A DNA stretch of 64,000 nt from positions 4,786 to 68,785 of the forward strand of contig JAGOBM010000003.1 in the NCBI GenBank assembly GCA_017983435.1, in the 5' to 3' direction. The DNA comes from Candidatus Moraniibacteriota bacterium. Its GTDB lineage: Bacteria > Patescibacteriota > Minisyncoccia > Moranbacterales > UBA1568. Of this stretch, positions 16,165 to 58,390 are shown piece after piece. Numbering within the stretch: position 1 is the first letter of the stretch; each line of letters starts with the position of its first letter. The translations under genes were made by a program, and so were the position numbers. The notes beneath the pieces are model-generated. The model made no database searches and had not been told where the DNA came from. It saw only the letters and a list, made by a program, of their open reading frames with translations.

Positions 16165-16176
16165 ACTCTCTCCCTT

Positions 16177-23713: not shown

Positions 23714-23727
23714 ATTACAATCCTGAA

Positions 23728-26340: not shown

Positions 26341-26342
26341 GA

Positions 26343-26813: not shown

Positions 26814-26823
26814 AGATTCGTTA

Positions 26824-28046: not shown

Positions 28047-28052
28047 ATGACT

Positions 28053-28553
28053 CTATTCCCATGTATTACGGAGTGTAGCTCCGCTTCGGATATTCAGATT
28101 CTCTCCTTCCCCCGCGGTTTCCCAATCGGGCCGCAGCGTCAGCAGAAACACTATCTGCTGCGACCGGCCATCCGAAGTATGTGTTTCTTCGAAGCGCATA
28201 TCCGCTCCCCGAACATCCGAGCCGAGCAGTGCCGATACGCTCGATCCATCATCGACCAGGATATTTCCCTCGCTGAAATATATGGCCGTCGTATCGCTCG
28301 AATCAGGATCGCCCAGCTCTATCCGGTCAGCCGAAAAATATTCCAGACTATCAGCATGACGGATGATCGACCCCAGCCGCTGCGTGGCAACCCGTGCCTC
28401 AGTGGCGACCGACTGCATATGTCCATTGCGTTCGCTCACGCTCGTGGTATTCCAGAAAAACACCGACAACGCCAGACCGAGCAGCGTCATCAGACCGAGA
28501 TATATCAGTATCTCGATCAAAGTGAATCCCCTCTCTCGGCGTAGACTCTTCAT
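28053..28553 (-). CDS. pseudopilin/minor pilin (prepilin N-terminal domain)
   Basis: RGFTLIEILIYLGLMTLLGLA. Confidence 0.65.
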   Translation of the reverse strand: MKSLRRERGFTLIEILIYLGLMTLLGLALSVFFWNTTSVSERNGHMQSVATEARVATQRLGSIIRHADSLEYFSADRIELGDPDSSDTTAIYFSEGNILVDDGSSVSALLGSDVRGADMRFEETHTSDGRSQQIVFLLTLRPDWETAGEGENLNIRSGATLRNTWE

Positions 28554-29023
28554 AGGACTGGTTCCTCCCAAAATGTGATATATTCGGAAAATTCGACCGT
28601 CTCCGGCTGACCAGGACTCGGCTCCCAATACACTCTCGACGTGACCTTCAATGTTCGCGTATCTTCTGTACCGTCATCAGCGATCATACTACCACTGTCA
28701 CGGTGAGCGTATTCGATCGTCAGACGACGCTCATACTGTTCAAACCGATCCCCGCTCTCGCTGGTGAAATCCCAACCGTCCGATCCGTTCCATGCGATAG
28801 TCCCCTCATGCACCGTCTGCAACGAGGCAAACCCATGCTGATGGATCGCTCGCACGAGTTCCAAACCCTCTTCCGCATAGGCGATCGCTCCCATCAGGTC
28901 AGCATTCCGTCTCCCGCTCTCAAGCGACTGCAGCAGGATGCCCGCTAGTGACGCTGAAAAAACGATGAAAATCGCCCCGGCCAGCACCACTTCCACTATT
29001 GAAAAACCTGATTGTTTCCGCAT
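28550..29023 (-). CDS. pseudopilin/minor pilin (prepilin N-terminal domain)
   Basis: SGFSIVEVVLAGAIFIVF. Confidence 0.65.
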   Translation of the reverse strand: MRKQSGFSIVEVVLAGAIFIVFSASLAGILLQSLESGRRNADLMGAIAYAEEGLELVRAIHQHGFASLQTVHEGTIAWNGSDGWDFTSESGDRFEQYERRLTIEYAHRDSGSMIADDGTEDTRTLKVTSRVYWEPSPGQPETVEFSEYITFWEEPVL

Positions 29024-29037
29024 AACGGCCAGAGTAT

Positions 29038-29481
29038 TTATTCCGATCTTTCCACAGCTCCCTCACGATTCACAGAGAAGACGACCGGCGTGCCGGCACT
29101 CTGAATACTGATTCCAGAGAGTATCTCCGGGAGTCGCCCGCTCTCCCGTTCAAACACCACTTCATCGAACCCGGAAAGCGTCGCCCCTCGCGGAAGTGTC
29201 ACTCGCTCATCAAACGCAGGGTCCCGATGGGCATATTCCGTACCAAGGAATACAATCAGTTCATCGTTCCGGAGGGCTACCCCCCACATCGTAGCGTTCT
29301 TTCCATTCATCGAATAGAGTTGGGCTTTCCTCAGATTGGAACGCAGCATATAGAGCACCGCTTCGGAAGAGGCTGACCCCAAAGTCAGGTTCGGGATAGT
29401 CATAGAAATCGCCCCCACCACCATGATGATAGCCAGGACCAGGATGATCTCGATAAATGTGAAGCCAGAGCGCTGTACCAT
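29038..29481 (-). CDS. pseudopilin (GspH/FimT-like)
   Basis: SGFTFIEIILVLAIIMVVGA. Confidence 0.65.
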   Translation of the reverse strand: MVQRSGFTFIEIILVLAIIMVVGAISMTIPNLTLGSASSEAVLYMLRSNLRKAQLYSMNGKNATMWGVALRNDELIVFLGTEYAHRDPAFDERVTLPRGATLSGFDEVVFERESGRLPEILSGISIQSAGTPVVFSVNREGAVERSE

Positions 29482-29490
29482 AGGGATCTC

Positions 29491-30534
29491 TTAGCGGTGG
29501 ACCGAACCGGTGAGCTGATAGATCGGGGACAGGATAGCCAGCGCCAAAAAGATAACGACTGACGCGATGATAATCAGGAGCGCCGGCTCAAGCACGACGG
29601 TAAAATTTTTCGCATTCCTATCCACTTCTTCATCCAGGAAATCCCCAAGGTAGAGGAATGTCTCGCTCAATCGCCCGGACTGCTCGCCGGCAAAAATCAT
29701 CTTCGTCACCACGGAGGGAGCAAGCGAGGCATAGCGGCCCGACAGTTCCGCTGACAGTGTCCTCCCCTCGAGAGAGGACGTATGGAGTCCTCGGGCCATA
29801 TCGGCAAATACCCAGTTCTGTGCGGCTCGCTCTTCTACCAGCAGCGCCTGGGATATCGACAGCCCGCTCCCAAGCATCACACCCATATCCCGGAAAAATT
29901 GCGCCAGATAGAGACTCCGAAGAAAGGCTCCCACCACCGGCAGACGGAGCAGGACCCGATGCCAGTACGGACGGATTATCGGAAGCAGCGTCACTCCGCG
30001 AAAAACAACTGCTAGAATACCTATCATCAAGAGCGCTATGACACCGTATTCCTTCATCAAAAGCGAGAACGCGAGCAATATCCGTGTCGAGAGCGGAAGC
30101 AGCATATCGAAAGACGCGAAGAGCTTCATCAGTTTCGGCAATACAAAAACACTGATCAGCCCGGTCAGCGTCACCGAAGTCGCCAGTACGATCGCCGGAT
30201 AGAGGAGTACGCTCTGTATCTTCTTTTTCAGCTGATAGGTTTTTTCCAATTGCAACGCAAGGAATTCCAGATTCTTCGACAGCGCCCCTGAACGTTCGCC
30301 TATTCCGACCAGACTGACGAAGAGATGACTGAAGACCTTCGGATGCCGTTCCAAGGCATACGCAAGCGGCTGCCCATTCTCGATATCCTCGATGACCGTC
30401 TCGATCACGCGCCGCATCGAAGAGAATTGCGACTGCTCAGCAATCGAGACCAGCGCCTCGCGCAAAGGCACACCGCTTTTCAGCAGCACCGAAAGCTCCC
30501 GGGTAAACAGCAGTTTTTCCACGTTCTGTATCAT
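29491..30534 (-). CDS. pilC: type IV pilus platform protein PilC (T2SS F family)
   Basis: Two T2SSF-type repeats, 347 aa, 3 or more TM helices; immediately downstream of pilB. Confidence 0.8.
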   Translation of the reverse strand: MIQNVEKLLFTRELSVLLKSGVPLREALVSIAEQSQFSSMRRVIETVIEDIENGQPLAYALERHPKVFSHLFVSLVGIGERSGALSKNLEFLALQLEKTYQLKKKIQSVLLYPAIVLATSVTLTGLISVFVLPKLMKLFASFDMLLPLSTRILLAFSLLMKEYGVIALLMIGILAVVFRGVTLLPIIRPYWHRVLLRLPVVGAFLRSLYLAQFFRDMGVMLGSGLSISQALLVEERAAQNWVFADMARGLHTSSLEGRTLSAELSGRYASLAPSVVTKMIFAGEQSGRLSETFLYLGDFLDEEVDRNAKNFTVVLEPALLIIIASVVIFLALAILSPIYQLTGSVHR

Positions 30535-30572
30535 ACAAAAGTATCACCGACAAACCATCTCTCGCCCGCTGC

Positions 30573-32273
30573 CTATTCCCGGGACACACGGAAGATCTCT
30601 TCTATCGTCGTCATGCCATTCTTGACCTTGAGCAAACCATCATCGAGGAGCGTCGTCATACCCGCTCGGCGCGCGATCGTCTCTATGTCTCCGGCATCCT
30701 TCCGTTCCAGAATAGCGTGGCGCAACGCGTCATCAAGCACCAGCACCTCAAACACGCCGGTCCGCCCCTGCAGTCCGGTGCCGTGGCATGCCGGACAGCC
30801 CTTGCCATGATACATACGCACTTTCGCATCAGGAGCCAGCTCGCCGAATACCCGCTTCACGCTCTCCGCACCGACCCGATCGATCAGCTCTTGGACCGGG
30901 ACTTCCTGACTGACACGACAGGCCTCATGGATTTTCCTGACCAAGCGTTCCGCGATGATCGCATTGACCGTCGAAGCGATCAGAAACGGTTCGGCGCCCA
31001 TATCGACCAGCCGAGGAATCGCCGTCGCGGCGTTGTTGGTATGCAGGGTCGACAGGACGAGGTGCCCCGTCATCGCGAGATTGATGGCGATACCAGCCGT
31101 CTCGGTATCCCGGATTTCTCCGACCAGGATGATATTCGGATCCTGCCGGAGTATACTCCTCAATCCCGTCGCAAATGTCAGATTGGCGTGCGGATTCACC
31201 TGGATCTGATTGACTCCTTCGACATCGTACTCGACCGGATCCTCGATCGTCATGATATTCACATTCCGACGATTGAGCAGCTTGAGGAAAGAGTAGAGCG
31301 TCGTCGTCTTGCCGCAGCCGGTCGGCCCGGTCACAAGCACCATGCCATATGGCTTCTGATACGCTTCCTGTATCTTCATCAGATCCGCCGTTCCGATACC
31401 GAGATTGCTGAGCGAAAATTGCCTCGAACGATCCGAGAGGAGACGCAGCACGAGTTTCTCGCCGTTCGTAATCGGGATGATCGAGACGCGGATGTCGATC
31501 TGCTCACCATCGATATCCGTCTGCAGCTTGCCGTCCTGGGGCGCCTGATGTTCATCCGTCCGCAGCTGTGCCAGGACCTTGATACGGGAGACGATCTGGG
31601 GATGCAACGCTGCCGGCAGCTTCGCGATATCATGCAGGATGCCATCGATACGGAAACGGATAAGCGCATCATGATCACGCGGCTCCAAATGGATATCCGA
31701 GGCTTTGTTCCGATAAGCATACCCGAACAAAGCGTCTACCACCCGTATGATCGGCGGATCGATAGGCGTACCGAGGCCCTGCTGAGCGGTCTCAAGATTT
31801 TCCTTGAGAATATCTCCGAACGCTTCGGTCGCATTCTTCCGATAGCGATTGAGCGCTTCGCTGATATCGCGTTCCGTCGCATAGTGCCTCCGTACCACTA
31901 TGCCGGTCTTCCGCTCGAGGAAATTGAAAAATTCGATATCTGTCGGATCAGCCGTCGCCAACGCGATACCCTCCGTGTCCACAGAAAACACGATCGCCTG
32001 ATGCCGCTGCGCGACCAGCTCAGAGATCTGCTGCAAGACATCTTCGGGAATCGCCTTCTCTCGCAGGTTGACGAACGGGATACTGAAATACTCCGCCAAC
32101 AATTTGCCTATCTCCTCATCGGACAGGAAATTGTGCCACAAAATCGCGCTCCGGAGCGTCGTCTCCTCAAGGTTGGCTCGCTCCTCGGCCAGCTTGAGCT
32201 GATCTTCGGACAACAACCCATAGTCGAGCAACATTTTCCGTAATGCCTCTGACGCGATGATATCTGATTGCAT
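30573..32273 (-). CDS. pilB: type IV pilus assembly ATPase PilB (GspE family)
   Basis: Walker A VTGPTGCGKTTT, GEIRD, tetracysteine CPACHGTG; 566 aa. Confidence 0.9.
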   Translation of the reverse strand: MQSDIIASEALRKMLLDYGLLSEDQLKLAEERANLEETTLRSAILWHNFLSDEEIGKLLAEYFSIPFVNLREKAIPEDVLQQISELVAQRHQAIVFSVDTEGIALATADPTDIEFFNFLERKTGIVVRRHYATERDISEALNRYRKNATEAFGDILKENLETAQQGLGTPIDPPIIRVVDALFGYAYRNKASDIHLEPRDHDALIRFRIDGILHDIAKLPAALHPQIVSRIKVLAQLRTDEHQAPQDGKLQTDIDGEQIDIRVSIIPITNGEKLVLRLLSDRSRQFSLSNLGIGTADLMKIQEAYQKPYGMVLVTGPTGCGKTTTLYSFLKLLNRRNVNIMTIEDPVEYDVEGVNQIQVNPHANLTFATGLRSILRQDPNIILVGEIRDTETAGIAINLAMTGHLVLSTLHTNNAATAIPRLVDMGAEPFLIASTVNAIIAERLVRKIHEACRVSQEVPVQELIDRVGAESVKRVFGELAPDAKVRMYHGKGCPACHGTGLQGRTGVFEVLVLDDALRHAILERKDAGDIETIARRAGMTTLLDDGLLKVKNGMTTIEEIFRVSRE

Positions 32274-44637: not shown

Positions 44638-45015
44638 TTAAGCACGCTTCGATGCACCGAGCAGAGAATGGATGGCCGTCGCCAGGATCGACCAATAGAA
44701 AACAAAATAGATACCGACAAACGGAGGAGGTGGATCTTCCTTCAAGAAATTCACCTGAGGCAGAGCCAATGGTCCTATCAAAACAATTTTGAGAGGCAAT
44801 ATGATCACAGATGCCGTCCTCTTCCAGGCGATCAGTGAGTCACTGCCGGTATTCAGGATAGAATCGGGCGAATGAGGGAAACCCCGAGGGCCCGTTGATC
44901 CCAGAAGCGTCGTGGTGATAAACATGAAAACAAACCCGGAAACAACAAAGAGGATGACAAATTTTTTTCTTGAGATATTCATAAGCATCCAATACTCACT
45001 CTGTACGCATATCAA
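44638..45015 (-). CDS. small 2-TM membrane protein (paralogue of 53655-53999)
   Basis: 125 aa; about 75% identical to the 53655-53999 product (GPRGFP...IVLIGPLALPQ...FLKEDPPPPF); 4-bp overlap with the upstream CcdA-thioredoxin gene. Confidence 0.5.
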   Translation of the reverse strand: MICVQSEYWMLMNISRKKFVILFVVSGFVFMFITTTLLGSTGPRGFPHSPDSILNTGSDSLIAWKRTASVIILPLKIVLIGPLALPQVNFLKEDPPPPFVGIYFVFYWSILATAIHSLLGASKRA

Positions 45016-47832: not shown

Positions 47833-48039
47833 TTATGCTTTAATGGTAAATATCTTCTCCATGGGAACACAAAAATATTTTGCTATCTTGAGCGCCAAGA
47901 GCACCGAGGGAGTATAATTCCCTTTCTCGAGAGCGATAATCGTCTGGCGCGTAACACCCACGGCCTGTGCAAGCTGTTCCTGGGTGAGCCCTCGCATCTT
48001 CCTCAAATCTTCTATTCTATTTTCGACCATTTCCTGCAT
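47833..48039 (-). CDS. XRE-family helix-turn-helix transcriptional regulator
   Basis: [29 protein letters not shown]. Confidence 0.8.
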
Positions 48040-48042
48040 ACA

Positions 48043-48066
48043 ATATGTAAAACTGACTTTACATAT
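48043..48066. promoter_or_regulatory. perfect palindrome ATATGTAAA-N6-TTTACATAT upstream of the XRE gene (candidate operator); a further half-site CTTTACATAT at about 48112
   Basis: 9-bp inverted repeat about 5 bp upstream of the XRE start codon. Confidence 0.45.
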
Positions 48067-48198
48067 TCATTCTAGACTATTCACACACAATGTCAAGCTT
48101 ACTTTACATATTTTTTCTCTCAAAATTCACGTATATCTTAGATAACAAAAAAACCGCCCTCATTACTGAGAGCGGCTACGTGATTTTAAGCCAGTTCT

Positions 48199-48585
48199 TT
48201 ATCCTTCTACTTCAACCTTGAATCCACCATAAGCCATGCGCTTCATATCGACAGGCATCACCATATCTTTATATTCTTCCGCCTTCTCGCCCATCTCTTC
48301 CATCACCTTGGCATTGACTTCGTCTCGATGCTCTTTGGAGTTGAAGACGATAAATGAGAACCAAACCGTCTCATCACTGGTTGCTCCAGTCATTTCAGGA
48401 AATGCGCGTGTCTTTTCGTCACCCATTTCCTGAGGAGCAAGATCATCTCCGCGGCACTCATAGTATTCAAGTGCACCATATTTCATCCAGGCATCGCGAC
48501 CACCTTCTGCCATTTTCTTGTATTCTTCAGCTTTGTCTTTTGGAACCACCAGCACGAATCCATCCACATATTTTCCTTCGTTCAT
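48199..48585 (-). CDS. DUF1428-family protein
   Basis: VDGFVLVVPKDKAEEYKKMAE...YGALEYYEC. Confidence 0.6.
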   Translation of the reverse strand: MNEGKYVDGFVLVVPKDKAEEYKKMAEGGRDAWMKYGALEYYECRGDDLAPQEMGDEKTRAFPEMTGATSDETVWFSFIVFNSKEHRDEVNAKVMEEMGEKAEEYKDMVMPVDMKRMAYGGFKVEVEG

Positions 48586-48640: not shown

Positions 48641-48674
48641 AAAAAATAGGCTTAAATAAGCCTATTTTTATTTG
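48641..48674. terminator. bidirectional terminator hairpin AGGCTTA-AA-TAAGCCT with A/T flanks
   Basis: Downstream of the DUF1428 gene and directly followed by the att-like repeat. Confidence 0.55.
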
Positions 48675-48716
48675 CTTCGACGGCTGGAACACTCACTGCT
48701 CTCCGCCAGCTGGCGG
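48675..48716. repeat. degenerate copy of the tRNA-Asn 3' end (CTTCGACGGCTGGAA) plus the 14-bp palindrome CCGCCAGCTGGCGG
   Basis: 16 of 18 nt match TTGGCTCCGACGGCTGGA, the tRNA-Asn 3' end at 57931. The palindrome is also present at about 52677 and 53218. Confidence 0.45.
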
Positions 48717-48968
48717 ATGCGCTCTATAGGGCTTTCCACCTCGGCTTCGCCTTAGCGAGACGGGCCGCCCTTCTAGTCCTCGGAAGACCTCGGTCACCCC
48801 AAACGGGAAACTCCTGTTTCCCGACCCCTGCCTACCGGCAGGCAGGCCTTCCCGTTCGAATCCAACCGCTTTGAATAAATACAAAAAAGGCGCCCCAATG
48901 GACGCTCTTTTTGCATATGCTCCGAGCGATGAAAGAAGTTCGAACCGCCATCAAAAGCTCTACATTCA

Positions 48969-50051
48969 CTACTTTCTAAGCAGATCAAAAAATGCCCTAT
49001 GGAAATAAAGTCTTTCTCTGCCGATTTTTTCACTTTTGAGCAGGCCTATCCTTTCAAGCTCTACCAGATATTTTCCTGCAGTTTTTTCTTTCACGATTCC
49101 AGCATCGACAAGAAACTTTCTCTTGGAATACGGCAACTGAAAGAGAGTGTTTACCAGTTCTTTCGAATAGATATTCGGCGCCTTTTCTTTGATCATCTGC
49201 TCAGTCGATTCCATTAGAGAGCAGATATCATGGATCTTTTGCTCTGTATACTTTGCGGTCTGCTCCACAGCGTCCAGCATATATAAAATCCACGATTCCC
49301 ATTCCTCTCTTTCCGTCACTCCGCGCAACTTCACATAATAATCACTCTTATTCTCCAATATATATTTACTAAGATACAGGATAGGATGTTCCAAGAGACC
49401 CGTAAGAACGAGGAAGAGGATATTCAAAATACGTCCCGTCCTTCCGTTTCCATCATGAAAAGGATGAATAGACTCAAATTGATAGTGCAGAACCGCCATC
49501 TTCACCAAAGGATCTATTCCGTCCTTCTGATCATTTATGTACTGTTCCAAATTCTTCAGTTTCTCAAGAATAACAGCCTCTCCTTCCGGTGGCGTGTACA
49601 CAATCTCTCCCGTGGCAGGATTGGCAATTTTTGTCCCAGGAATCTTTCGAATACCTCCGTCCGTCTGTTTGATAGCCTGCATCATCTCTATGAGAACTCT
49701 AGCACTGATAAATCCGTTCTCGCGTATAAAGCCATAGCCGTACCACAATGCTTTCGGGTAAGAAATAACTTCTTTTAAATTTGGATCTGTGACGCTTTCC
49801 AATGCTAACGACTGGTAGAGCTCATCATTCGTGGTGACAATATTTTCAATTTCCGAACTCAACTTCGCTTCCTGAAGAATAACCGCATTCGCAAGCAGAG
49901 ATTCATTTGGCAATCTTTTGTTCGATGCATCAAGAGCAGCGAGAGCGGCTCTAGCCCCTATCGCTTTTTTCAAAATAGCTGCGGTTTCTAATTCCTTCAG
50001 GGGCGGAAGGAGTGGTAAATCGTTATATGGTTTCTGACGATCAAAAGACAT
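48969..50051 (-). CDS. Fic-family protein (putative AMPylator)
   Basis: HPFHDGNGRTGR Fic motif; 360 aa; lower-GC gene. Confidence 0.85.
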   Translation of the reverse strand: MSFDRQKPYNDLPLLPPLKELETAAILKKAIGARAALAALDASNKRLPNESLLANAVILQEAKLSSEIENIVTTNDELYQSLALESVTDPNLKEVISYPKALWYGYGFIRENGFISARVLIEMMQAIKQTDGGIRKIPGTKIANPATGEIVYTPPEGEAVILEKLKNLEQYINDQKDGIDPLVKMAVLHYQFESIHPFHDGNGRTGRILNILFLVLTGLLEHPILYLSKYILENKSDYYVKLRGVTEREEWESWILYMLDAVEQTAKYTEQKIHDICSLMESTEQMIKEKAPNIYSKELVNTLFQLPYSKRKFLVDAGIVKEKTAGKYLVELERIGLLKSEKIGRERLYFHRAFFDLLRK

Positions 50052-50422
50052 ATATTTCTTTTAATACTTATAGGGTTCTTTGCTATTTTGATAATAGTAC
50101 ATACGGGCAATAAAGTAAAGTAAATGCCCGTATTCGTTTAATACGGGCATTCAATGCCCCTACCATAAAAATGCAGGCATTTATACAAAAATCATGCCTC
50201 AATCAATAAAAATCCAATGACGTTCGAACTGATTTTATAGCATAAAAGAGCCAAAATATGGCTCTTTTATGAACTAGCTCCCCTTAGTGGATGAACTTAG
50301 AACTTTAGATTGGAGAAGGATTGGGAAGATGGTAACAGAAATGGAGCGGGTTTTAGTGTAAAAATTTTTGAAGCCGCTGGGTGATACCATGCGGCCTCTG
50401 TATTCGCGCCCCGTTCGGACGC

Positions 50423-50692
50423 CTAGTTGGTCTTCATCTTGGCCATGTAGATCATGGTGCTGTGGCCGTTGATGCCGAACTCGGTCTGGATGCGGAAAGT
50501 AACGAATCCTTCACCGAGCTTCTGCTTGATCGTCTCTTCCCAGCTGGGGCCAAAGTAGCCAGCCCAGAACTCTGCCACCTGCGTCAGGTCCAGGTTCTGG
50601 TTTGCGATGATCGTGAGCAGCTGCTCGGGATTTTCGACACCACCGCGCAGAGCTTGTTCGATGACTTCGCGAGAAACGCCTTGCATGTTCAT
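50423..50692 (-). CDS. hypothetical small protein with atypical GC-rich codon usage
   Basis: 89-aa ORF; GC3-rich, unlike the AT-rich flanks. Confidence 0.35.
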   Translation of the reverse strand: MNMQGVSREVIEQALRGGVENPEQLLTIIANQNLDLTQVAEFWAGYFGPSWEETIKQKLGEGFVTFRIQTEFGINGHSTMIYMAKMKTN

Positions 50693-50794
50693 CTCCTTGT
50701 GAGAACTTTCCCTTTCAGCCGGGAACGTGGCCGTTGCTCAGTCAGAACTTGCAACTATGAAGTATAGCACCTTTCACGTCCGGTGTCAATATAA

Positions 50795-50830
50795 AAACAT
50801 AAATAGAGGCTCATATAAGCCTCTATTTGG
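50795..50830. terminator. bidirectional terminator hairpin AGAGGCT-CATATA-AGCCTCT
   Basis: Perfect 7-bp stem with A/T flanks. Confidence 0.55.
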
Positions 50831-51040
50831 AACTTGCTCCGCCTACTGAACACTATTAGAACCTCTATCCAGGAAGACAAGGCGTCAAAGCTCTACTACT
50901 TTGGCTTGAAAAGGTTTATGAAATGAATTACCTCGCAGCAAACTCCGAGGAATTCTCTTGAATTAAGGGCGGCTCTTATCCGTATTTTGTACCCCCCTTC
51001 AGAGTACCGTATTTTCATATCGCCTATTTTGTATCTTTCA

Positions 51041-51478
51041 CTAGAGTTGATCTATAGCGCTCTTCATCTCTGCGACAAGCGCCCGGACATCACCCTCGGA
51101 CAGTACCGTACGGACCGTGTTGGCATGATTCAAATCGCCCAGCCGCGTATTGGGAATGAGGTGATAGTGCAAATGTTCCACACTCTTGGCTCCACTTTTC
51201 CCCTCCCGAACCATGAGAGAAAAGTCCTCATATCCGAGATAGCGGAGGATGCGGGAACTTTTCTGAACCAAATCCCAAATATCACCCCACTCCTCCACTC
51301 CGATATCGAAAAAGGATTTCCGATGCTCTTTGGGAATGATAAGAAGATGGTGTTTGTGATATGGAGCGATCGCATAGGTGACATAGGCTGTCTCATTCTC
51401 AATCAACCGACGATCATCGGAAGCACAGAACGGACACGTCCCCACAGGAAGTGCTTGTACGTATTCGGCGTACTTCAT
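51041..51478 (-). CDS. HIT-family (histidine triad) protein
   Basis: HLHYHLIP histidine triad, 145 aa. Confidence 0.8.
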   Translation of the reverse strand: MKYAEYVQALPVGTCPFCASDDRRLIENETAYVTYAIAPYHKHHLLIIPKEHRKSFFDIGVEEWGDIWDLVQKSSRILRYLGYEDFSLMVREGKSGAKSVEHLHYHLIPNTRLGDLNHANTVRTVLSEGDVRALVAEMKSAIDQL

Positions 51479-51541
51479 ACTGGAACAGTCATACTAAGAG
51501 TGTAGGGTATCCTTCGATACATTTCTAGTATACCACTAGTT

Positions 51542-52543
51542 TCAACCATTGTTTCCATGAGCAGAGAACCATTGACCTTCGCTGCTCTTTTTGAGAACTT
51601 TGCCCGTCGGAATAGAGGCGGAGTGGTAGAAATAATCAAAAACTTTGCCAAGGGTAATGACAGGAACATCGGGAATAACATGCGCACGGACCAGAGGAAG
51701 ATTCCCAAACGGCACTGATGGCAACAGGTGATGTTCAAAATGATACCAGGTATGATGGGGCAGAAATAAGGCCCGCTGCCATACAGTGGCATAAAAACGG
51801 TGCGTACCCGGAGTGCCGACATGTTCAGTCCAAACCCTCAGTCGGAAAACTGCAAAACAGGACGTGAGGAGAGAGAATATCCAAATTCCAAATACCCAAA
51901 GCATACCAGCGTACCAGAAAACACCCAGAATAAGCCCCCAGTACAGAAACATCTGGCTCTCTATGGGAACGTCTTTGCCCCCTTGTCCAGAAAGCGTGTC
52001 TTCTGTCTTGGTATCGAGAGCGCCATGAACATACCTCTTACCGAAAAACTGCAAAATGGTTCTTCTCTTATACCATACGATTCCGATACCCGTTAAGTCG
52101 CTCAGGATGATGCCTAGGAGTCGGACAGGCGAAATGGGTATATCCCAGGCTGGCGCCTCCAGAAACTTGCTCTCCAGCTCTGGATCTCTTTCCGTACCAA
52201 GGAATCGATGGTGACGGAAGTGATACTCCCGATATTCCCCAAGGGGGAGAAAAATCGGCCAGCTCGCCAACGCTCGTGTCAAAAAATCGTTCAGCTTCAG
52301 ATTATTCGTTATGAGCCAGTGGGCACCATCATGGGAAAGAATGCCCAGCGCGTGTTGGCGTGTACCGATGACAGCAATCGCAAAGAAAGCCGCCCACCAG
52401 GTCTGAAATGAAAACACAAAAACATAGGCCATGAGAATGACAGACCAATCGAAAAATACATTTCCGAGCCAGCGCCAGATATTCTTGTGGCCTAGCTGAG
52501 GCTGAGCAAGAATGGAGTCGCCCGATAATGACCGCTCTTTCAT
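51542..52543 (-). CDS. membrane fatty-acid desaturase family protein
   Basis: Three His boxes (HDGAHW, HRFHH-like YHFRHHRF, FEHHLLP); multi-TM. Confidence 0.8.
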   Translation of the reverse strand: MKERSLSGDSILAQPQLGHKNIWRWLGNVFFDWSVILMAYVFVFSFQTWWAAFFAIAVIGTRQHALGILSHDGAHWLITNNLKLNDFLTRALASWPIFLPLGEYREYHFRHHRFLGTERDPELESKFLEAPAWDIPISPVRLLGIILSDLTGIGIVWYKRRTILQFFGKRYVHGALDTKTEDTLSGQGGKDVPIESQMFLYWGLILGVFWYAGMLWVFGIWIFSLLTSCFAVFRLRVWTEHVGTPGTHRFYATVWQRALFLPHHTWYHFEHHLLPSVPFGNLPLVRAHVIPDVPVITLGKVFDYFYHSASIPTGKVLKKSSEGQWFSAHGNNG

Positions 52544-52657
52544 ACGTTATCCGCTATTCACTCTGACACACTGATTTTAGCTGCTATCACAAAATGACGC
52601 AAAGGATTTCAGAGGAGTAAACCAGCTTATCGTAGGTTTTCACTTTCATGCAGCGTA

Positions 52658-52708
52658 GCAACAAAAAACAAGGCTTCCGCCAGCTGGCGGATATGGCCTT
52701 GTTTTTAA
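52658..52708. repeat. copy B of the GCAACAAAAAACAAGGCTT terminator-type repeat, with the CCGCCAGCTGGCGGATATG insert in its loop
   Basis: 19-nt identity with the tRNA-Asn-proximal terminator at 57894. Confidence 0.5.
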
Positions 52709-52779
52709 CTGCCCGCCTAGATTACCCCCTTCAGTATGCCGGGTCTCGCCTTCGCTTTTTTATATGCTAAAATACGCAT

Positions 52780-53187
52780 ATGAATACTATTCAGAATATA
52801 AAAAATGGTAGTACTCTCCCCGAAGAAAAACCGGGAGCGCCTATCTACCCTGAAGACGTTGGCCTCGGCAGTATTGGGGAAGAGGCGGCCAGCAACCTTC
52901 CCGATCATCTTCAAAAAATAGAGGGGAGAATGAAGAAAGATAATGTCTGGTCGCCTGTTCAGACAGAAAGCGACACCCGATTTATGCCACTTCCTGAGTG
53001 GATAACGCTTGTGATGGTTCCAAGGGATACAATGAACTTAGAAAAACTTCTTCTACCGGGAAATTATTGTGTCGGCGGCATGGCAGCATATGAACAAAAA
53101 GCCGGGGCTTTCCCTAACCTATCACCAGAACTTATGAAACTTTTTGAAGAATATGAGGAAATGCTGGCAAACCTGAGAAAAATATGA
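52780..53187 (+). CDS. hypothetical protein
   Basis: 135-aa ORF bracketed by repeat copies B and C. Confidence 0.4.
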   Translation: MNTIQNIKNGSTLPEEKPGAPIYPEDVGLGSIGEEAASNLPDHLQKIEGRMKKDNVWSPVQTESDTRFMPLPEWITLVMVPRDTMNLEKLLLPGNYCVGGMAAYEQKAGAFPNLSPELMKLFEEYEEMLANLRKI

Positions 53188-53198
53188 GTATTTTTTGA

Positions 53199-53250
53199 GC
53201 AACAAAAAACAAGGCTTCCGCCAGCTGGCGGATATAGCCTCGTTTTCTCA
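53199..53250. repeat. copy C of the same terminator-type repeat, with the palindrome insert
   Basis: GCAACAAAAAACAAGGCTT-CCGCCAGCTGGCGGATATA-GCCTCGTTTT. Confidence 0.5.
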
Positions 53251-53334
53251 GCTCAACTTGTTGGATGCTGTTGAGAGTCCACTGAATCCATTTCCAGTTG
53301 GAGAATCCCCCAGATGTATTCTAGCGACGATTAC

Positions 53335-53598
53335 TCATTTGGAACGATGCACGCAACCGGCCCAACAACAGGGTCTGCGCATGCCAGACTTGAGTTTTGA
53401 AAGACCCACTTCGATTCGACGCTTTCTTGTTTCCTCCTTCTTGGCATCGAGAATCCAACAAATCCACTCATTACGTGCGAGTGGCGTAATATCCTGCCAG
53501 AGAGCATGCGCCAAAGGTGTCGCCGTAAGTGCTTTCCGCCAATCTGCCGGCACACTATGCACCATGCCCTCGGGAATTTCTTTTTTGAACTGACGCAT
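53335..53598 (-). CDS. YdeI/OmpD-associated family protein
   Basis: ARNEWICWILDAKKEETRKRRI pattern, 87 aa. Confidence 0.5.
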   Translation of the reverse strand: MRQFKKEIPEGMVHSVPADWRKALTATPLAHALWQDITPLARNEWICWILDAKKEETRKRRIEVGLSKLKSGMRRPCCWAGCVHRSK

Positions 53599-53654
53599 AG
53601 TTGAAAGTATTCTTCTTCATTGTGAGTATACCGCGCTTGCATCTTTCCCATCCT

Positions 53655-53999
53655 TTAAGGACGTTCTGTTTTTCCGAAGAAATGACGGATAGTTAAGGCA
53701 AGGATAGTCCAGTAGCAGACGAGATAGATACCGATAAACGGCGGTGGAGGGTCTTCTTTCAAGAAATGAATCTGAGGCAAAGCCAAGGGTCCTATGAGGA
53801 CGATTTTTATAGGCAAGAGAACTGTGGACACGACACGCTTCCAGACGATCGGTGAGTCGCTACCGGTCCTAAGGACAGAGTCGGGAGGCTGAGGAAAACC
53901 TCGGGGTCCTGTTGTTCCTAAAAGCGAGGTGGTGATAAAAAGAAAAGCAAATCCAGAAACGAGGAAGAGGACGACGAATTTTTTCCTTGAAGTGTTCAT
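53655..53999 (-). CDS. small 2-TM membrane protein (paralogue of 44638-45015)
   Basis: 114 aa; about 75% amino-acid and about 75-80% nucleotide identity to the 44638-45015 gene. Confidence 0.5.
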   Translation of the reverse strand: MNTSRKKFVVLFLVSGFAFLFITTSLLGTTGPRGFPQPPDSVLRTGSDSPIVWKRVVSTVLLPIKIVLIGPLALPQIHFLKEDPPPPFIGIYLVCYWTILALTIRHFFGKTERP

Positions 54000-54091
54000 A
54001 TCGATCGAACACCGAATCCCTTGCGTTAGTTACAAGTATCGGGTCTGGGCTTCCATCTCAATCTTATCACACGTTCTAACCCTCACTTTGA

Positions 54092-54157
54092 GCAACAAAA
54101 AACAAGGCTTCATTAGGCCTCGTTTTCTTAGCTCGCCTGGCGGGACAACTTCCGAAC
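54092..54157. repeat. copy D of the terminator-type repeat followed by a degenerate tRNA-Asn 3'-end-like segment
   Basis: GCAACAAAAAACAAGGCTT-CATTAG-GCCTCGTTTTCTT then AGCTCGCCTGGCGGGACAACTTCCGAAC, about 65% matched to GGCTCCGACGGCTGGATTCGAACC. Confidence 0.45.
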
Positions 54158-54227
54158 TTTTGACTGGGAGAAGGCTTTCCCTGATCCGAATGTTTCACTG
54201 AGAGAAATACAGGGATTACTAGCTCTT

Positions 54228-55286
54228 CTATAGCTGATATTTCCCCCTCACTATTTCTTTTGCAACGTCGTCTCTTACCTGCTTTTTTGGCGACTTAAAC
54301 ATCAGGCTACTTATTTCCTCCAAATGACCCGACTCACCGTTATCTAACGCTATTTTCATAGCCCGAATGACATCAACCATTATCCCAGCACTATTCGGAC
54401 TATCCTCAACACTCAACTTTAAGTCCACTTCAAACGGAATATTTCCAAATTGACGGCCTTTTATGTTGATATAACAGACTTTATTATCCTTCAAATGTGG
54501 TATAAAATCGCTTGGTCCGATACGAACATCTGCCAGACCCCCATCAAGAATAGAGGTCACCGCCTGAGTTTTAGATTTCCTCTTACTCAATAGACGATTC
54601 TGATCGAGCATATTTTCAAAATCTGAATTCCCACCGACATTCAGTTGAAATGTACTGTCAATAACTTGTCCCCGATCTTCTATGAGTCGCGATAATACCC
54701 TGTGAATGATTGTGGCTCCGACTTGAGACTTTATGTCATCACCAGCGCACGGCAATCCTTTCTCCCTAAATTTATCTATCCACTCATCGTCAGAACAAAT
54801 AAACTCCGGTATGGCATTGATAAAACCGATACCAGCATCAATAGCTGCCTGCGCATAAAACCGGGCGGCTTTCGCGCTTCCAACCGGAAGATAGCATATG
54901 AGCATGTCCGCTCCGGAACGCTCCAATTCACCGATGACATCGCATTCTTTTTGCGACTCATCGACAAGAAAAGTCTGTCGCATATGATCAGCAACACCAT
55001 CCAGAATTGGCGCCTTCTGAACAATCACTCCAGTAACCGAGACATCGCATATCTCTTTCGTGCAGTTCGATCCAGCATTGATCGCTACAGAAAGATCATT
55101 CCCAACTTTTCTCTTATCGACATCAAATGCGGCAACAAACTCTATGTCACTTACGTGATATCCACCAAATTCAGCATGAAGTAGACCAACGACTGGATTA
55201 TCCTTATTCGTATAATACACACAGCCCTGTATCAATGAACTTGCACAGTTGCCGACCCCGGCTATGGCTACCCTTATCTTTCCCAT
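54228..55286 (-). CDS. inositol-3-phosphate (myo-inositol-1-phosphate) synthase, short type
   Basis: N-terminal Rossmann fold VAIAGVGNCASSL; 352 aa like archaeal/bacterial MIPS; low GC. Confidence 0.65.
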   Translation of the reverse strand: MGKIRVAIAGVGNCASSLIQGCVYYTNKDNPVVGLLHAEFGGYHVSDIEFVAAFDVDKRKVGNDLSVAINAGSNCTKEICDVSVTGVIVQKAPILDGVADHMRQTFLVDESQKECDVIGELERSGADMLICYLPVGSAKAARFYAQAAIDAGIGFINAIPEFICSDDEWIDKFREKGLPCAGDDIKSQVGATIIHRVLSRLIEDRGQVIDSTFQLNVGGNSDFENMLDQNRLLSKRKSKTQAVTSILDGGLADVRIGPSDFIPHLKDNKVCYINIKGRQFGNIPFEVDLKLSVEDSPNSAGIMVDVIRAMKIALDNGESGHLEEISSLMFKSPKKQVRDDVAKEIVRGKYQL

Positions 55287-55291
55287 ATGTA

Positions 55292-55858
55292 TTACTCTTT
55301 ACCGAATTCATTCCGACTGAGGTACGAGGAGACACCAACATGCAATGTAGCCTCCTTCATTTCTCCACTCTTCATTTTCTCTAATAACTCTTCGAGTGAC
55401 ATCCTTATCAAACGAATATTTTCACTCTCATCCTGAGAATAAGAATTTCCCGTGTCCTCTTTTAATTCTGTCGCGAGAAAAATATGCTTCGTACATGTCG
55501 TTCTTCCCGAATCGGGATAGTACGTAAGAAGTTTCTCCATATGATTCGCCAACATCCCGGTTTCTTCCGCTAATTCTCTCCTCGCGGCATCAATCGGTTG
55601 TTCGCCCTTTTCGACACCGCCACCGGGCAAATCTATCGTAACATCCCCAACGGCATGTCTATACTGCTTTACTAGAAAGACATTGTTATCTCTATCGACA
55701 GCCAGAATCGCAATGAGCTCCCCTCCTTCCACCGTATAAAAATCATCCAATATCTTACCATTCGGTAACTCAACTGTTTCTTTCTTCACCTTGAGCCACC
55801 TCGTATCAAGAGCATGTTCCGATCCCAGAGACTTCCAAAATAGTTTTTTGTCTTCCAT
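55292..55858 (-). CDS. NUDIX hydrolase
   Basis: NUDIX box GGVEKGEQPIDAARRELAEETG. Start set at MEDKKLFW to avoid overlap. Confidence 0.75.
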   Translation of the reverse strand: MEDKKLFWKSLGSEHALDTRWLKVKKETVELPNGKILDDFYTVEGGELIAILAVDRDNNVFLVKQYRHAVGDVTIDLPGGGVEKGEQPIDAARRELAEETGMLANHMEKLLTYYPDSGRTTCTKHIFLATELKEDTGNSYSQDESENIRLIRMSLEELLEKMKSGEMKEATLHVGVSSYLSRNEFGKE

Positions 55859-55871
55859 ATAATTTTGACAA

Positions 55872-57032
55872 TTACTGATAAATAAGTTCCAAAGATTCCA
55901 ATTGTTTAGCGAGGGAAAATTCAGATCGGATAGAGCGCTTCCCACCACTTACCAGTATAGCTGACAAAACACTGTCATTCCTAATACGCAGTATTTTATC
56001 GGCCAGATCCTTCGGATCCATTGGTTTTGACAACAACCCGTTGACCTCATCCTTTATGACCTCATCTATACCGAAAGTGTTGCTCCCGATTACTGGAATA
56101 CCAGCGGCCATTCCCTCAAGCAAAACGATCCCCAGCCCTTCCACGTGTGATGGCAATACACAAACATCACAATTTGCAAGAACATGTGGCATAGTCTCCA
56201 GACTTTCTTTGTCTACAACAATTTTTACCCTATCGAGAAGTCCATTCTTTTCTATATACTCATTGATCAGCGTCAGATACTCACCAGATCCATTCTTCAC
56301 AGATGTGGGAACAAAAAGCTTTATCTTTCTATCACCAAGAATTTGTATGGCTTTTATAAGATCTAAAATACCCTTTCGACGTATCATTCTCGCTGGACAC
56401 GCAACGATAAAATCATCCTTCTCGTAACCGTATCGTGTCCTCCACGAGGGATCTTTTTCTACCGAAAAATCCTTTTCATCGATCCCGTGATAAACAAGCC
56501 TAGTTTTGCTTTCGTCAGCCCCCAACTTCAATGCCCAATCGTAGTAATAACGACTTGGGCACACAAGCGTATCATAAAACGGCAGTTTTATGATAAATGA
56601 AGCGAAAGCTTTCTCTACGCTGTAATCGGAAAAATGACCAATAATTTTCCCTTCTTCAGGAATCGGCGTGCTGTGAAACGTAAATATAGTCTTCTTGGTC
56701 CTCACTAAGGACAAGAGTGAAGCATAGGCAAGCCCTGGCATGAAGTTATGAACATGCACCACATCAAAGGTATCATCCGAGATAGCCTTCGCAAAATCAT
56801 CGAGAATGGCGCGAAAAGAAGCTTTCCCTTTCTCGAAGTCCCTAAAACCTCCGATTCTTATCACGGAAAATCTATTTTCTTCATTCTCTGACTCTGAAAG
56901 TGCGCTGTCACCTCCGGTGATAACGGTAACTTCGTGTCCCCTTTCAGAGAGTCTGGTCGCCAAAAGATACATATGTGTTTCCCCTCCACCGATTTGTGGC
57001 GGAAAACTGTGATTGATAAGACAGATCTTCAT
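55872..57032 (-). CDS. glycosyltransferase family 4 (GT-B, retaining)
   Basis: N-terminal MKICLINHSFPPQIGGGETH; C-terminal EGLGIVLLEGMAAGIPVIGS E-x7-E motif. Confidence 0.8.
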   Translation of the reverse strand: MKICLINHSFPPQIGGGETHMYLLATRLSERGHEVTVITGGDSALSESENEENRFSVIRIGGFRDFEKGKASFRAILDDFAKAISDDTFDVVHVHNFMPGLAYASLLSLVRTKKTIFTFHSTPIPEEGKIIGHFSDYSVEKAFASFIIKLPFYDTLVCPSRYYYDWALKLGADESKTRLVYHGIDEKDFSVEKDPSWRTRYGYEKDDFIVACPARMIRRKGILDLIKAIQILGDRKIKLFVPTSVKNGSGEYLTLINEYIEKNGLLDRVKIVVDKESLETMPHVLANCDVCVLPSHVEGLGIVLLEGMAAGIPVIGSNTFGIDEVIKDEVNGLLSKPMDPKDLADKILRIRNDSVLSAILVSGGKRSIRSEFSLAKQLESLELIYQ

Positions 57033-57078
57033 ACTGTTATGAATCTAAAAAAGACTCGGGTCCATATCTGGGCCCGAG

Positions 57079-57810
57079 CTAACCACTCATCCAAAACTCT
57101 TGGAAAAGAAACCCCAGATATCTTTTCCAAGTACCAAGGTCATCCCATTCGTTTCTCAAGATGTAGCATTCCCCACCGTGCTTCGCATACACCCATTCGA
57201 CAATGTCTTTCGTCATATTATATGCGCCACCAATAGACAATTGGTCTATGCACTCTCTCAGCGCGTCAAACCGAAATATGGGAATCCCGGTATATGCCAC
57301 TCTTGATTTCCGATGAAAAAACTTATGAAGCACTTTCTCGGAATTGAGTTGCACATCTATATAGTCATGGTGTGCCTCATCGCTATAGATGCCAACCATC
57401 AACAACGCGGGGGCGTTTCTTTCCACATAATATCGGAGTAAGTCCTGAACCGGCAGACGGACAAGATGGTCCCCATTCAGAACGATTACGACATCCGGCG
57501 CATAGTCACAAACTGTCTGCCAATGTTGTAGTACTGCCCCGCCGGTATCAAGTGCCGCCAGCTCAACAAGGACAGAGACATTCGGGTACTTCTCCCGGAC
57601 ATAATGCGCCACCTGTCGAGACTTGTACCGGGCAAGCACAACCGTCTTCCCTTCAACACCAGAGATGCCTCGGACATCACTGCTTTCGATGGCATAGTCG
57701 AGGATTTTCCTGTTGTTCATTGCTGGCAGAAGCGTCTTTTGGCTAAAAAACGTGGCTGGCCTAAGCCGAGTTCCTTTGCCACCAGACAAAACCAAAAACA
57801 TGACTTTCAT
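57079..57810 (-). CDS. sugar-/alcohol-phosphate nucleotidyltransferase (NTP-transferase fold)
   Basis: LSGGKGTRLRP motif. The N-terminal extension of the longer ORF merely translates the terminator repeat and is rejected. Confidence 0.65.
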   Translation of the reverse strand: MKVMFLVLSGGKGTRLRPATFFSQKTLLPAMNNRKILDYAIESSDVRGISGVEGKTVVLARYKSRQVAHYVREKYPNVSVLVELAALDTGGAVLQHWQTVCDYAPDVVIVLNGDHLVRLPVQDLLRYYVERNAPALLMVGIYSDEAHHDYIDVQLNSEKVLHKFFHRKSRVAYTGIPIFRFDALRECIDQLSIGGAYNMTKDIVEWVYAKHGGECYILRNEWDDLGTWKRYLGFLFQEFWMSG

Positions 57811-57893
57811 GGCAATCTCCCAAATATTTGAATGTGCTACCCCGACCGTATCATGCATAACCGAAATGGTCAACGGTTCGAATCCCGTTTTAG

Positions 57894-57930
57894 GTAACAA
57901 AAAACAAGGCTTTTGCAAGCCTCGTTTTGT
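57894..57930. terminator. bidirectional terminator AACAAAAAACAAGGCTT-TTGCA-AGCCTCGTTTTGTT, immediately 3' of tRNA-Asn
   Basis: Stem CAAGGCTT/AAGCCTCG with A-run and T-run flanks; master copy of repeats B, C and D. Confidence 0.6.
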
Positions 57931-58005
57931 TGGCTCCGACGGCTGGATTCGAACCAGCGACCAAGTGGTTAACAGCCACCTGCTCTACCACTGAGCTACG
58001 TCGGA
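57931..58005 (-). tRNA. tRNA-Asn (anticodon GUU), CCA encoded
   Basis: Hand-folded cloverleaf: acceptor UCCGACG/CGUCGGA, D-arm GCUC-AGUGGUA-GAGC, anticodon arm GGUGG-CUGUUAA-CCACU, T-arm GCUGG-UUCGAAU-CCAGC, discriminator G, CCA. Confidence 0.85.
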
Positions 58006-58129: not shown

Positions 58130-58390
58130 TCAGCCGAAAGCAGCTGCGAAGCCGCTCGGTGATGCTGGGAGAAACCCCATATCGGCCATGAGCGCGAGGG
58201 TCTTCTCGGCTTCTCCGATATTGAGCTTCTGGAGCGCGTAGCCGACATGGACGATGACATAATCGCCGACCGCGATATCTTCGACGAGCGCGAGCGAGAT
58301 CTGTTTCTTGACCCCGCTGATATCGACCGTCGCCATATCGGATCCGTCGTTGGCCAGCGCGACAACTTCCGCTGGGATACTGAGACACAT
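58130..58390 (-). CDS. hypC: hydrogenase maturation factor HypC/HupF
   Basis: N-terminal MCLSIP signature, 86 aa. Confidence 0.8.
   Translation of the reverse strand: MCLSIPAEVVALANDGSDMATVDISGVKKQISLALVEDIAVGDYVIVHVGYALQKLNIGEAEKTLALMADMGFLPASPSGFAAAFG

Follow-up and report, generated by a model that had tools for sequence, protein, structure and literature searches.

A tandem array of small modules beside a tRNA-Asn gene in a Moranbacteria genome, probably inserted serially and with joints resembling those of large serine recombinases

As far as we know, tRNA genes were for a long time believed not to be targets of serine integrases, with large surveys flagging a few unverified cases, and little is known of how bacteria of the candidate phyla radiation (CPR; Patescibacteria), whose genomes are tiny, acquire genes. 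Serial integration at tRNA genes has been described for tycheposons, where each new arrival displaces older elements inward (Hackl et al., bioRxiv 10.1101/2020.12.28.424599). The use of tRNA genes by serine integrases has been called previously unreported and rare, having been seen in only 14 of 297 cases, which await proof (PMC4383910, PMC7192596). The zinc-ribbon motif of serine integrases lies 5 bp nearer the crossover in the bacterial attachment site (attB) than in the phage site (attP), at positions 11-19 versus 16-24 (Rutherford 2013, PMC3783163). This work describes a 64,000-nt stretch of contig JAGOBM010000003.1 (the window, whose positions serve as coordinates throughout) from a metagenome-assembled genome of Candidatus Moranbacteria (Patescibacteria/CPR), in which an island of ~9.4 kb (48641-57930) adjoins a tRNA-Asn gene. 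Judging from sequence comparison, we consider it fairly probable that this island is a tandem array of ~5 modules inserted serially at the tRNA-Asn end (GGAGC), most likely by a large serine recombinase (LSR) from a family whose targets are tRNA 3' ends.

The joints between modules, and their fixed geometry, are directly visible in the window. Read in the sense of the tRNA, eight places (T, D, C, B, E2, E1, F, and A; Table 1) consist of an arm ending in (G/A)AGC followed by an A-rich hairpin terminator. Sites D, E2, E1, and F have in common the arm GTTCKRA-N15-SGAGC plus a hairpin; this motif matches the window four times (0.14 expected), always on the tRNA strand, inside the island, and with a hairpin after it. 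The tRNA-Asn(GTT) gene (ARAGORN; Rfam, 74 bits) carries the T-loop heptamer GTTCGAA at N10 from GGAGC, as opposed to N15 in the element arms, and this GGAGC spans the acceptor 3' end, the discriminator, and the first downstream base. Identity at the tRNA-Asn joints is confined to these 5 nt. In addition, a GRTTMGAAC-like motif lies 15 to 25 nt past the hairpins of T, D, E1, and F, and all five exact matches to GRTTMGAAC in the window fall in the island or the tRNA.

Part of this pattern had been recognized in a preliminary description, which was made from the sequence without database searches. Its placement of the tRNA gene and of an adjoining terminator was borne out, the latter as a hairpin with a T-run. 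It had also reported a 19-nt block, GCAACAAAAAACAAGGCTT, shared by B, C, D, and the tRNA terminator; the block is exact at 52658, 53199, and 54092, but the copy at the tRNA (57894) has one mismatch. Shuffled sequences lead one to expect 0.00 copies, and no other copy of the block turned up across the window and 1.4 Mb of control loci. A hidden Markov model (HMM) of the whole joint unit likewise found no further copy in the window or in those control loci. A 48-nt repeat family, composed of a hairpin and a tRNA-3'-like segment, is present at 48641, 54098, and 57900. The copy of the tRNA 3' end noted earlier, ~9.25 kb to the left and beside a terminator, was recovered at site A, where the segment at 48674-48689 matches the tRNA end ATCCAGCCGTCGGAGC at 14/16 positions in the direct orientation of the tRNA-Asn 3' end, and where the 48-nt repeat is 77% identical to the tRNA end. 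For copy D, previously called a degenerate tRNA 3' end, the resemblance stands (75% identity over 59 nt), but the arm is of the attP-type N15 form rather than a decayed tRNA. Indeed, the arms at D, E2, E1, and F are most likely all attP-type arms with a fixed N15. Joints E2 (50836), E1 (50277), and F (48919) are additions to those of the preliminary description.

The shift from N10 to N15 matches the published attP/attB signature of LSRs. With the crossover set at tRNA positions 70-74, which is what the junction data call for, the distance to the T-loop motif would be 13 to 19 bp in the tRNA and 18 to 24 bp in the element arms.

Junction polymorphism at GGAGC is observed directly in relatives. 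These were found by an RpoD scan of species-representative genomes together with a look-up of contigs encoding the flank proteins; their RpoD identity ranges from 70 to 95%. In all, 170 comparison loci were fetched (L-numbers), and all comparators are metagenome contigs. In three of them (L084, L116, and L120), the tRNA-Asn ends in GTCGGAGC and continues directly into TAGTTCATAAAAGAGCC, which is the E1 terminator of the window. The stretch from GGAGC to the GGTTCGAAC motif is 96.7% identical in L116/L120 (58/60 in L116) and 46/46 identical in L084, while the neighboring core DNA of these relatives is only 82 to 89% identical (RpoD and DnaG of L116/L120, 95%). Behind the E1 terminator, L116 carries different cargo, namely, a metallophosphatase and two uncharacterized open reading frames (ORFs), and at 3988-4038 it has a site F' (GTTCTAA-N15-GGAGC plus hairpin) that is 83% identical to site F. 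Because the ends are homologous and the cargo differs, the window's Fic module and its metallophosphatase counterpart in L116 represent alternative cargos. L116 is either a pre-insertion state or a deletion between two GGAGC sites, and the break falls at the proposed core either way. Further breaks lie at the same place: L086, from the same population, departs from the first base after GGAGC, and contigs of three other assemblies (L003, L004, and L091) stop exactly at GGAGC(A). The strain of the window is itself represented by Logan contigs, which start at E2 (50864/50865, in two samples) and end at C.

A fully empty site, with tRNA-Asn followed directly by the DUF1428 gene, had been suggested as a check and was not found among the relatives examined. 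In L006, a distance of 7.8 kb separates tRNA-Asn from DUF1428 downstream of it, and the interval is taken up by unrelated cargo and an insertion sequence. This locus, L008, and L009 (70 to 80% RpoD identity) have other cargo after tRNA-Asn, and their joints are weak or variant: L006 holds a 13/16 copy of the tRNA end at 3984-3999, and L008 holds GTTCTGA-N14-GGAGC followed by tandem hairpins ending in GGCGGAGC (region 16120-16300). In L109 (930-1500), ATCCAGCCGTCGGAGC recurs as an exact second copy, and a GTTCGCA-N15-CGAGC arm is also present. Both L109 and L008 come from other organisms whose tRNA-Asn has the same 3' end, with stacked pseudo-ends and hairpins downstream. Among viral contigs, the 16-mer of the tRNA end matched mostly unrelated coding sequence. 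As a separate observation, the tRNA-Asn of close relatives is split in the anticodon loop, between CTGT and TAAC, by a group I intron of ~580 nt (L116 474-1058; also L084-L086 and L120) that contains a 115-amino-acid HNH-like ORF and matches Rfam Intron_gpI at L116 774-1050 with 75 bits; the tRNA-Asn of the window has no intron.

LSR genes stand at the same tRNA in relatives. In L108, a full-length LSR of 466 amino acids overlaps tRNA-Asn next to rpoD-dnaG, and in L088 a convergent ORF with a recombinase zinc-ribbon domain overlaps the tRNA-Asn 3' end. Nine contigs from several samples (L099-L106) carry a 251-amino-acid LSR remnant beside tRNA-Asn/rpoD/dnaG (e.g., L099 7188-7943); this ORF comprises only the C-terminal zinc-ribbon/coiled-coil part of an LSR and represents either a remnant that became fixed or a fragment that was domesticated. 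No tyrosine integrase was found at tRNA-Asn in any relative examined; the recombinases there are LSRs. The phage-like contig L107 encodes a full-length LSR with GTTCKRA-N15-SGAGC ~100 nt past its stop codon, and among the 170 fetched loci this motif occurs outside the window only in L107 and in L116/L120 (F'). A 466-amino-acid LSR of the same family also lies at the 3' end of tRNA-His in Margulisbacteria (L166), in an independent, complete element of ~10 kb with a helix-turn-helix (HTH) repressor, a primase (Toprim), and the LSR. Its distal joint reads GTTCTAA-N13-GCCGCCCCA and the tRNA-His reads GTTCGAT-N8-GCCGCCCCA, that is, a 9-nt direct repeat with a +5 shift. An LSR profile search of viral contigs gave one distant relative with no clear site.

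Two further observations connect the LSR family with the window. In L088, L107, L108, and L166, the 3' coding end of the LSR gene contains the motif GGTTC(T/G)AAC, conserved as DNA, which encodes VRT in some genes and LEP in others, which suggests conservation of a DNA site rather than of protein; GRTTMGAAC is also kept in the LSR-less modules (57876, 54073, 50222, and 48854). The closest homologues of module 1, in L167-L170, lie beside a divergent full-length LSR of the same family where the window has hairpin T and GATTCGAAC only. These homologues share all four genes and their order, with myo-inositol-1-phosphate synthase (MIPS) 77 to 79% identical and 68% nucleotide identity over 3.6 kb, and the homology begins 39 nt before the ATG of the NTP-transferase. 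The LSR-linked cluster lies in a mobile or defense-rich region: its neighbors (L167 1-21065; also L168-L170) include a type I restriction-modification system, a ParB-methylase, an S24 repressor, a KAP NTPase, a second LSR, and a tyrosine integrase.

From these observations we infer that an LSR made the joints in the window, and also at which base crossover took place and in what order the events followed one another. The array would read tRNA, module 1, D, module 2, E2, module 3, E1, module 4, F, module 5, A, DUF1428. Each newcomer would insert at the GGAGC of tRNA-Asn and push older modules away, leaving the oldest nearest A and the newest, module 1, nearest the tRNA. The tRNA would contribute an attB-type half-site (T-loop GTTCGAA, 10 bp, GGAGC) and the element an attP-type half-site (GTTCKRA, 15 bp, GGAGC), together with a replacement of the last bases of the tRNA, a terminator hairpin, and the GRTTMGAAC motif. 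After integration, the attP-type arm would stay at the distal joint, as at D, E2, E1, and F, so that a distal joint would consist of the attP left arm of its module plus whatever previously followed the tRNA; upon excision, the two ends (P and P') of a module would be joined, e.g., CATCGCTCGGAGC to TAGTTCATAAAAGAGCC. The LSR genes would since have been lost or would never have been present on the smaller modules.

As the preliminary description had stated, no integrase is present in the window: ORFs of at least 140 amino acids gave no Pfam match to a recombinase or transposase, and there was no Pfam match to Phage_integrase in the window. Because no recombinase is encoded there, the array is probably immobile, or fixed, in this genome. 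The truncated LSR of L099-L106 and the LSR-bearing homologues of module 1 favor loss of the integrase gene, while the intact ends of every module leave room for cassettes mobilized in trans.

Several points weigh against an LSR-built array. Serial insertion would have to use the regenerated tRNA site again, yet canonical LSRs do not recombine attP with attL. Joints D, E2, E1, and F were themselves the source of the N15 motif, although the motif was later recovered in L107 and L116 and, in relaxed form, in L109, L008, and L166. Leave-one-out nhmmer models recover E2 weakly (E = 0.15) and miss E1; resemblance in sequence is thus insufficient by itself, and it is the relatives and the geometry of the motif that support these two joints. 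No inverted copy of the outer motif is found within 25 bp to the right of GGAGC, the right-hand arms have no clear dyad symmetry, and GRTTMGAAC, at ~50 to 60 bp from GGAGC and past a hairpin, falls outside the canonical 50-bp attP. Sites A, B, and C deviate from the attP-arm pattern, the arm of A being attB-like and those of B and C poor; rather than marking joints, hairpins B and C may simply represent a conserved family of terminators. The LSR-bearing elements of L167-L170 adjoin the restriction-modification system rather than a tRNA and are without the motif, and a tblastn search of the window with ten members of the LSR family found no LSR remnant. The low-GC zone continues to the left of site A without detectable joints; a generic scan of that side for NRAGC plus a perfect hairpin was too unspecific to show any.

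The same repeats could also be displaced, decayed tRNA fragments left by classical accretion through tyrosine integrases, with a core identical to the tRNA 3' end. Site A, which keeps its 14/16 identity and a homologous hairpin, and the 13/16 copy in L006 speak for this, and nearly all known tRNA islands are due to tyrosine integrases (PMC4383910, PMC7192596). However, the E1 terminator is 97 to 100% identical to that of relatives, and yet 6/14 positions of the tRNA-like arm next to it deviate from the tRNA, which points to original element sequence and not to decay; random decay would not yield a fixed N15 spacing in four arms; and LSRs, not tyrosine integrases, stand at tRNA-Asn in the relatives examined. 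We therefore hold this explanation to be improbable. The preliminary proposal of serial integration or decay at a tRNA attachment site keeps its first half, in view of the E1 fusion in L084/L116/L120, the departure of L086, the contig ends, and the recombinases at the tRNA, and loses its second half for D, E2, E1, and F. A different doubt is whether the joints belong to an element at all: in an ordinary hypervariable region, they would be genome-wide terminators, turnover would proceed by homologous recombination or deletion, and the resemblance to attachment sites would be due to chance. The lack of a convincing arm ahead of hairpins B, C, and their L116 copy would fit, as would low GC past site A without joints, but with the 19-mer and the unit HMM confined to the island across the window and control loci, the junctions of relatives falling exactly at GGAGC, and the motif geometry matching LSR elements elsewhere, we give this explanation very little credence.

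The remaining rival shares the LSR with the reading that we prefer and differs in what was mobile. Here the modules would be integrase-less cassettes, mobile as such and driven in trans by an LSR that a phage or another part of the genome supplies, and the tRNA site would be a reusable, integron-like platform. The LSR-type modules have both ends intact, lack LSR pseudogene debris, and range down to 0.5 kb (orf89); homologous ends enclose unrelated cargo in the Fic module and in the Metallophos module of L116; and GRTTMGAAC, conserved in DNA in differing reading frames inside LSR genes, is retained in LSR-less modules. On the other hand, the nearest homologues of module 1 have their own LSR and a truncated LSR is fixed in L099-L106, both of which suggest that an integrase was lost rather than never possessed, and no circular or excised cassette junction was observed. 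On balance, we regard cassettes of this kind as unlikely. A literal integron was rejected, as there is neither IntI nor, judging by hairpin size and motif, attC architecture.

Returning to an array built by serial LSR insertion, a wider proposal can be put forward tentatively, as a possibility short of probable. The LSR family may use the universal T-loop GTTCGAA as its outer motif, cross over at the acceptor 3' end, and shift between tRNAs (Asn and His seen here). The regenerated site might act as a fresh attB, since the left arm alone (N15 versus N10) would distinguish attP from attB. The tRNA end would then be a reusable platform that stacks small modules, some of them perhaps integrase-less and moved in trans, and would amount to integron-like gene capture by a serine recombinase in CPR bacteria.

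Table 1. Positions of the joints, modules, and adjoining genes in the window
Feature	Coordinates	Strand	Content
tRNA-Asn, attB-type left arm	57931..58005	-	T-loop GTTCGAA (57948-57954), N10, GGAGC (57933-57937)
Site T, proximal (P') arm of module 1	57876..57932	-	terminator hairpin 57899-57928, then GATTCGAAC at 57876-57884
Module 1 cargo	54158..57875	-	NTP-transferase 57079-57813; GT4 55872-57032; NUDIX 55292-55858; MIPS 54228-55286
Site D	54073..54157	-	attP-type arm GTTCGGA-N15-CGAGC (54131-54157); hairpin 54097-54126 (19-mer copy D); GGTTAGAAC at 54073-54081
Module 2, possibly composite	50863..54072	-	small membrane protein b 53655-53999; YdeI/OmdA 53335-53598; fatty-acid desaturase 51542-52543; HIT 51041-51478
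Hairpin C (inside module 2)	53198..53246
orf135 (inside module 2)	52780..53187	+
Hairpin B (inside module 2)	52657..52705
Site E2	50801..50862	-	attP-type arm GTTCTAA-N15-GGAGC (50836-50862); hairpin 50801-50828
Module 3	50304..50800	-	orf89 (50423-50692), GC3 0.77; own promoter-like site TTGACA-17-TATACT
Site E1	50222..50303	-	attP-type arm GTTCTAA-N15-GGAGC (50277-50303); hairpin 50244-50268; AGTTCGAAC at 50222-50230
Module 4	48946..50221	-	Fic protein 48969-50051
Site F	48854..48945	-	attP-type arm GTTCGAA-N15-GGAGC (48919-48945); hairpin 48883-48912; GATTCGAAC at 48854-48862
Module 5/GC-rich element	48690..48853 (48690-48880 taken as ~190 nt)	unassigned	non-coding, without ORF support
Site A	48641..48689	-	tRNA-3'-like TTCCAGCCGTCGAAGC (48674-48689); hairpin 48641-48669; attB-like arm, leftmost detectable joint
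DUF1428 gene	48199..48585	-	first gene past site A

The modules range from 0.2 to 3.8 kb, the smallest gene-bearing one being that of orf89 (~0.5 kb). Their cargo is accessory, as the preliminary description had it: a SoFic defense gene, HIT, a desaturase, YdeI, and an inositol-phosphate/glycosyltransferase cluster. Pfam backs the gene calls for Fic, HIT, the desaturase, OmdA/YdeI, MIPS, NUDIX, GT4, the NTP-transferase, and DUF1428. The Fic protein of module 4 has the Pfam architecture Fic_N + Fic + SoFic-like_C and matches the PADLOC SoFic profile PDLC03963 with E = 3e-110 over residues 13-359 of 360, that is, a full-length match to this family and, by homology, a predicted anti-phage defense protein. 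The duplicated small membrane protein also noted earlier was found as paralogous genes with ~75% nucleotide identity at 44638-45015, beside rsgA, and at 53655-53999 in module 2; L116 has one homologue, with a palindrome-bearing hairpin ahead of the gene. That hairpin is 93% identical to those of the window, versus 82 to 89% in neighboring core genes.

Within module 2, direct repeats of 49 nt (52657/53198; 96% identical) flank a 492-nt segment with orf135, the sole island gene on the opposite strand. Together with its repeats (52657-53246), this segment looks like a separate small insertion or duplication. The loops of hairpins B and C contain the palindrome CCGCCAGCTGGCGG, and a perfect 16-nt palindrome, TCCGCCAGCTGGCGGA, is present in these loops (52676-52691 and 53217-53232), at the end of the GC-rich element (48702-48717), and in L116 (5166-5181). 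The shared motif TACCCCC(C)TTCAG from the preliminary description was confirmed at 50990-51002, after the HIT gene, and at 52723-52734, just upstream of hairpin B (two matches, 0.00 expected).

The GC-rich element that makes up module 5 has a GC content of ~0.60 amid a neighborhood of 0.40 to 0.45 and folds strongly on both strands (z about -3.9). It had no match in Rfam and none among viral contigs. Two other assemblies have contigs that break within this element, at 48732 and 48772, and it may be multi-copy or variable in the population. It could be the remnant of the oldest module or an uncharacterized RNA. A relic of the group I intron found in the tRNA-Asn of relatives was considered and rejected, as there is neither sequence similarity nor an Rfam match. 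In Rfam searches of the whole window at the gathering threshold and of 48.55-51.1 kb by E value, only the tRNA was returned; weak matches to IS128 and SraG were dismissed as hairpin artifacts. A blastn search of phage GenBank entries with 48.6-50.3 kb gave no match.

The composition of the island is atypical, as a windowed check of GC and tetranucleotides suggested by the preliminary description made clear. Its tetranucleotide distance is 0.37 to 0.44 against a background of 0.16 +/- 0.025, more than 8 standard deviations above background; GC content at third codon positions (GC3) is 0.40 to 0.55 against 0.64 to 0.75 elsewhere, with orf89 as an outlier; and composition varies from module to module. 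The island had been called more AT-rich than its flanks. This is true of GC per module (0.40 to 0.51 versus 0.55 to 0.56) and of the right edge, which is sharp and lies at tRNA-Asn, but low GC runs past site A, with a gradual left edge at ~44.6 to 46 kb. Over this region, a 48-kb contig of GCA_020051655.1 has the identical sequence.

Upstream of tRNA-Asn lie dnaG-rpoD-M15 peptidase-hypC; the N terminus of RpoD is a long lysine/alanine/proline-rich repeat. On the other side, beyond the DUF1428 gene, two 37-nt direct repeats with 78% identity and internal inverted symmetry (48037-48118) stand just upstream of a 68-amino-acid HTH (XRE-type) gene and look like operator sites for this regulator. 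Elsewhere, the genome encodes NiFe-hydrogenase large and small subunit-like genes (22388-24231) in addition to HypC (58130-58390), as well as a type IV pilus cluster (25852-32273) with PilB/PilC-like proteins and pseudopilins.

If the array arose as proposed, the locus would represent a repeatable route of gene acquisition in CPR bacteria, in which docking at tRNA-Asn beside dnaG-rpoD brings in SoFic defense and cell-envelope or metabolic genes. The pair of attB and attP sites readable from the DNA (T-loop at N10 versus N15) would offer a directly testable model of how a serine integrase recognizes a tRNA gene. Should the regenerated site be reusable, such integrases would have natural, conserved landing sites in every genome. 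Our literature searches returned nothing on such arrays in CPR bacteria. Serial tRNA islands of this tycheposon-like kind are already known.

Among known systems, integron cassette arrays and clusters of attC sites lacking integron-integrases (CALINs) are alike in their runs of small, mostly co-oriented cassettes with hairpin-forming ends and no integrase nearby. They differ in that the island has no IntI, has perfect terminator stems of 25 to 31 nt with T-runs instead of attC sites of 57 to 141 nt with R''/L''/L'/R' boxes, has a GTTCKRA motif that does not fit GTTRRRY, and received its insertions at a tRNA end rather than at attI. The cis-mobilizable elements (CIMEs) and accretion-mobilization elements of streptococcal integrative and conjugative elements (ICEs), the subject of work by Pavlovic in 2004 and Bellanger in 2011, reportedly depend on tyrosine integrases, integrate at the fda locus, and are accompanied by a cognate ICE. 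Like the modules described here, CIMEs are att-flanked, without recombination genes, and in tandem at one site; unlike them, the modules have no cognate ICE in the window.

With the tandem tRNA islands found by Islander/TIGER, the locus shares an intact tRNA gene at one end, a displaced, direct-orientation tRNA-gene-like fragment (site A) at the other, and the arrangement of tandem arrays at a single tRNA gene. Islander demands that every island have its own integrase gene and takes only tyrosine integrases into account (PMC4383910, PMC7192596), whereas the island here is without an integrase; it otherwise shows the marks of a tRNA island in its intact tRNA, direct 3'-end copy, atypical composition, and polymorphism at the attachment core. 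The tycheposon islands of Prochlorococcus come close in that successive site-specific integration is seeded at a tRNA, older elements are pushed inward, partial att/tRNA repeats and degenerate remnants accumulate in arrays, and the cargo is adaptive or defensive; a minority of tycheposons use large serine recombinases (bioRxiv 10.1101/2020.12.28.424599). The present locus differs in its CPR host, in the absence of the hallmark integrase and replication genes or module from the window, in having LSR-type attP arms in place of partial tRNAs, and in its module sizes. Compared with the large serine integrases (Listeria A118/LI integrase, phiC31, and Bxb1; PMC3783163), the locus is peculiar in its tRNA 3'-end target, with the T-loop as outer motif, a hairpin in the right arm, no obvious symmetry, apparent reuse of the site, and no LSR gene beside the site in the window. 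It resembles them in its short identity core and in an outer motif that lies 5 bp further out in attP, and the distances of that motif, ~13 to 19 bp in the tRNA and ~18 to 24 bp in the arms, fit the published ranges (PMC3783163).

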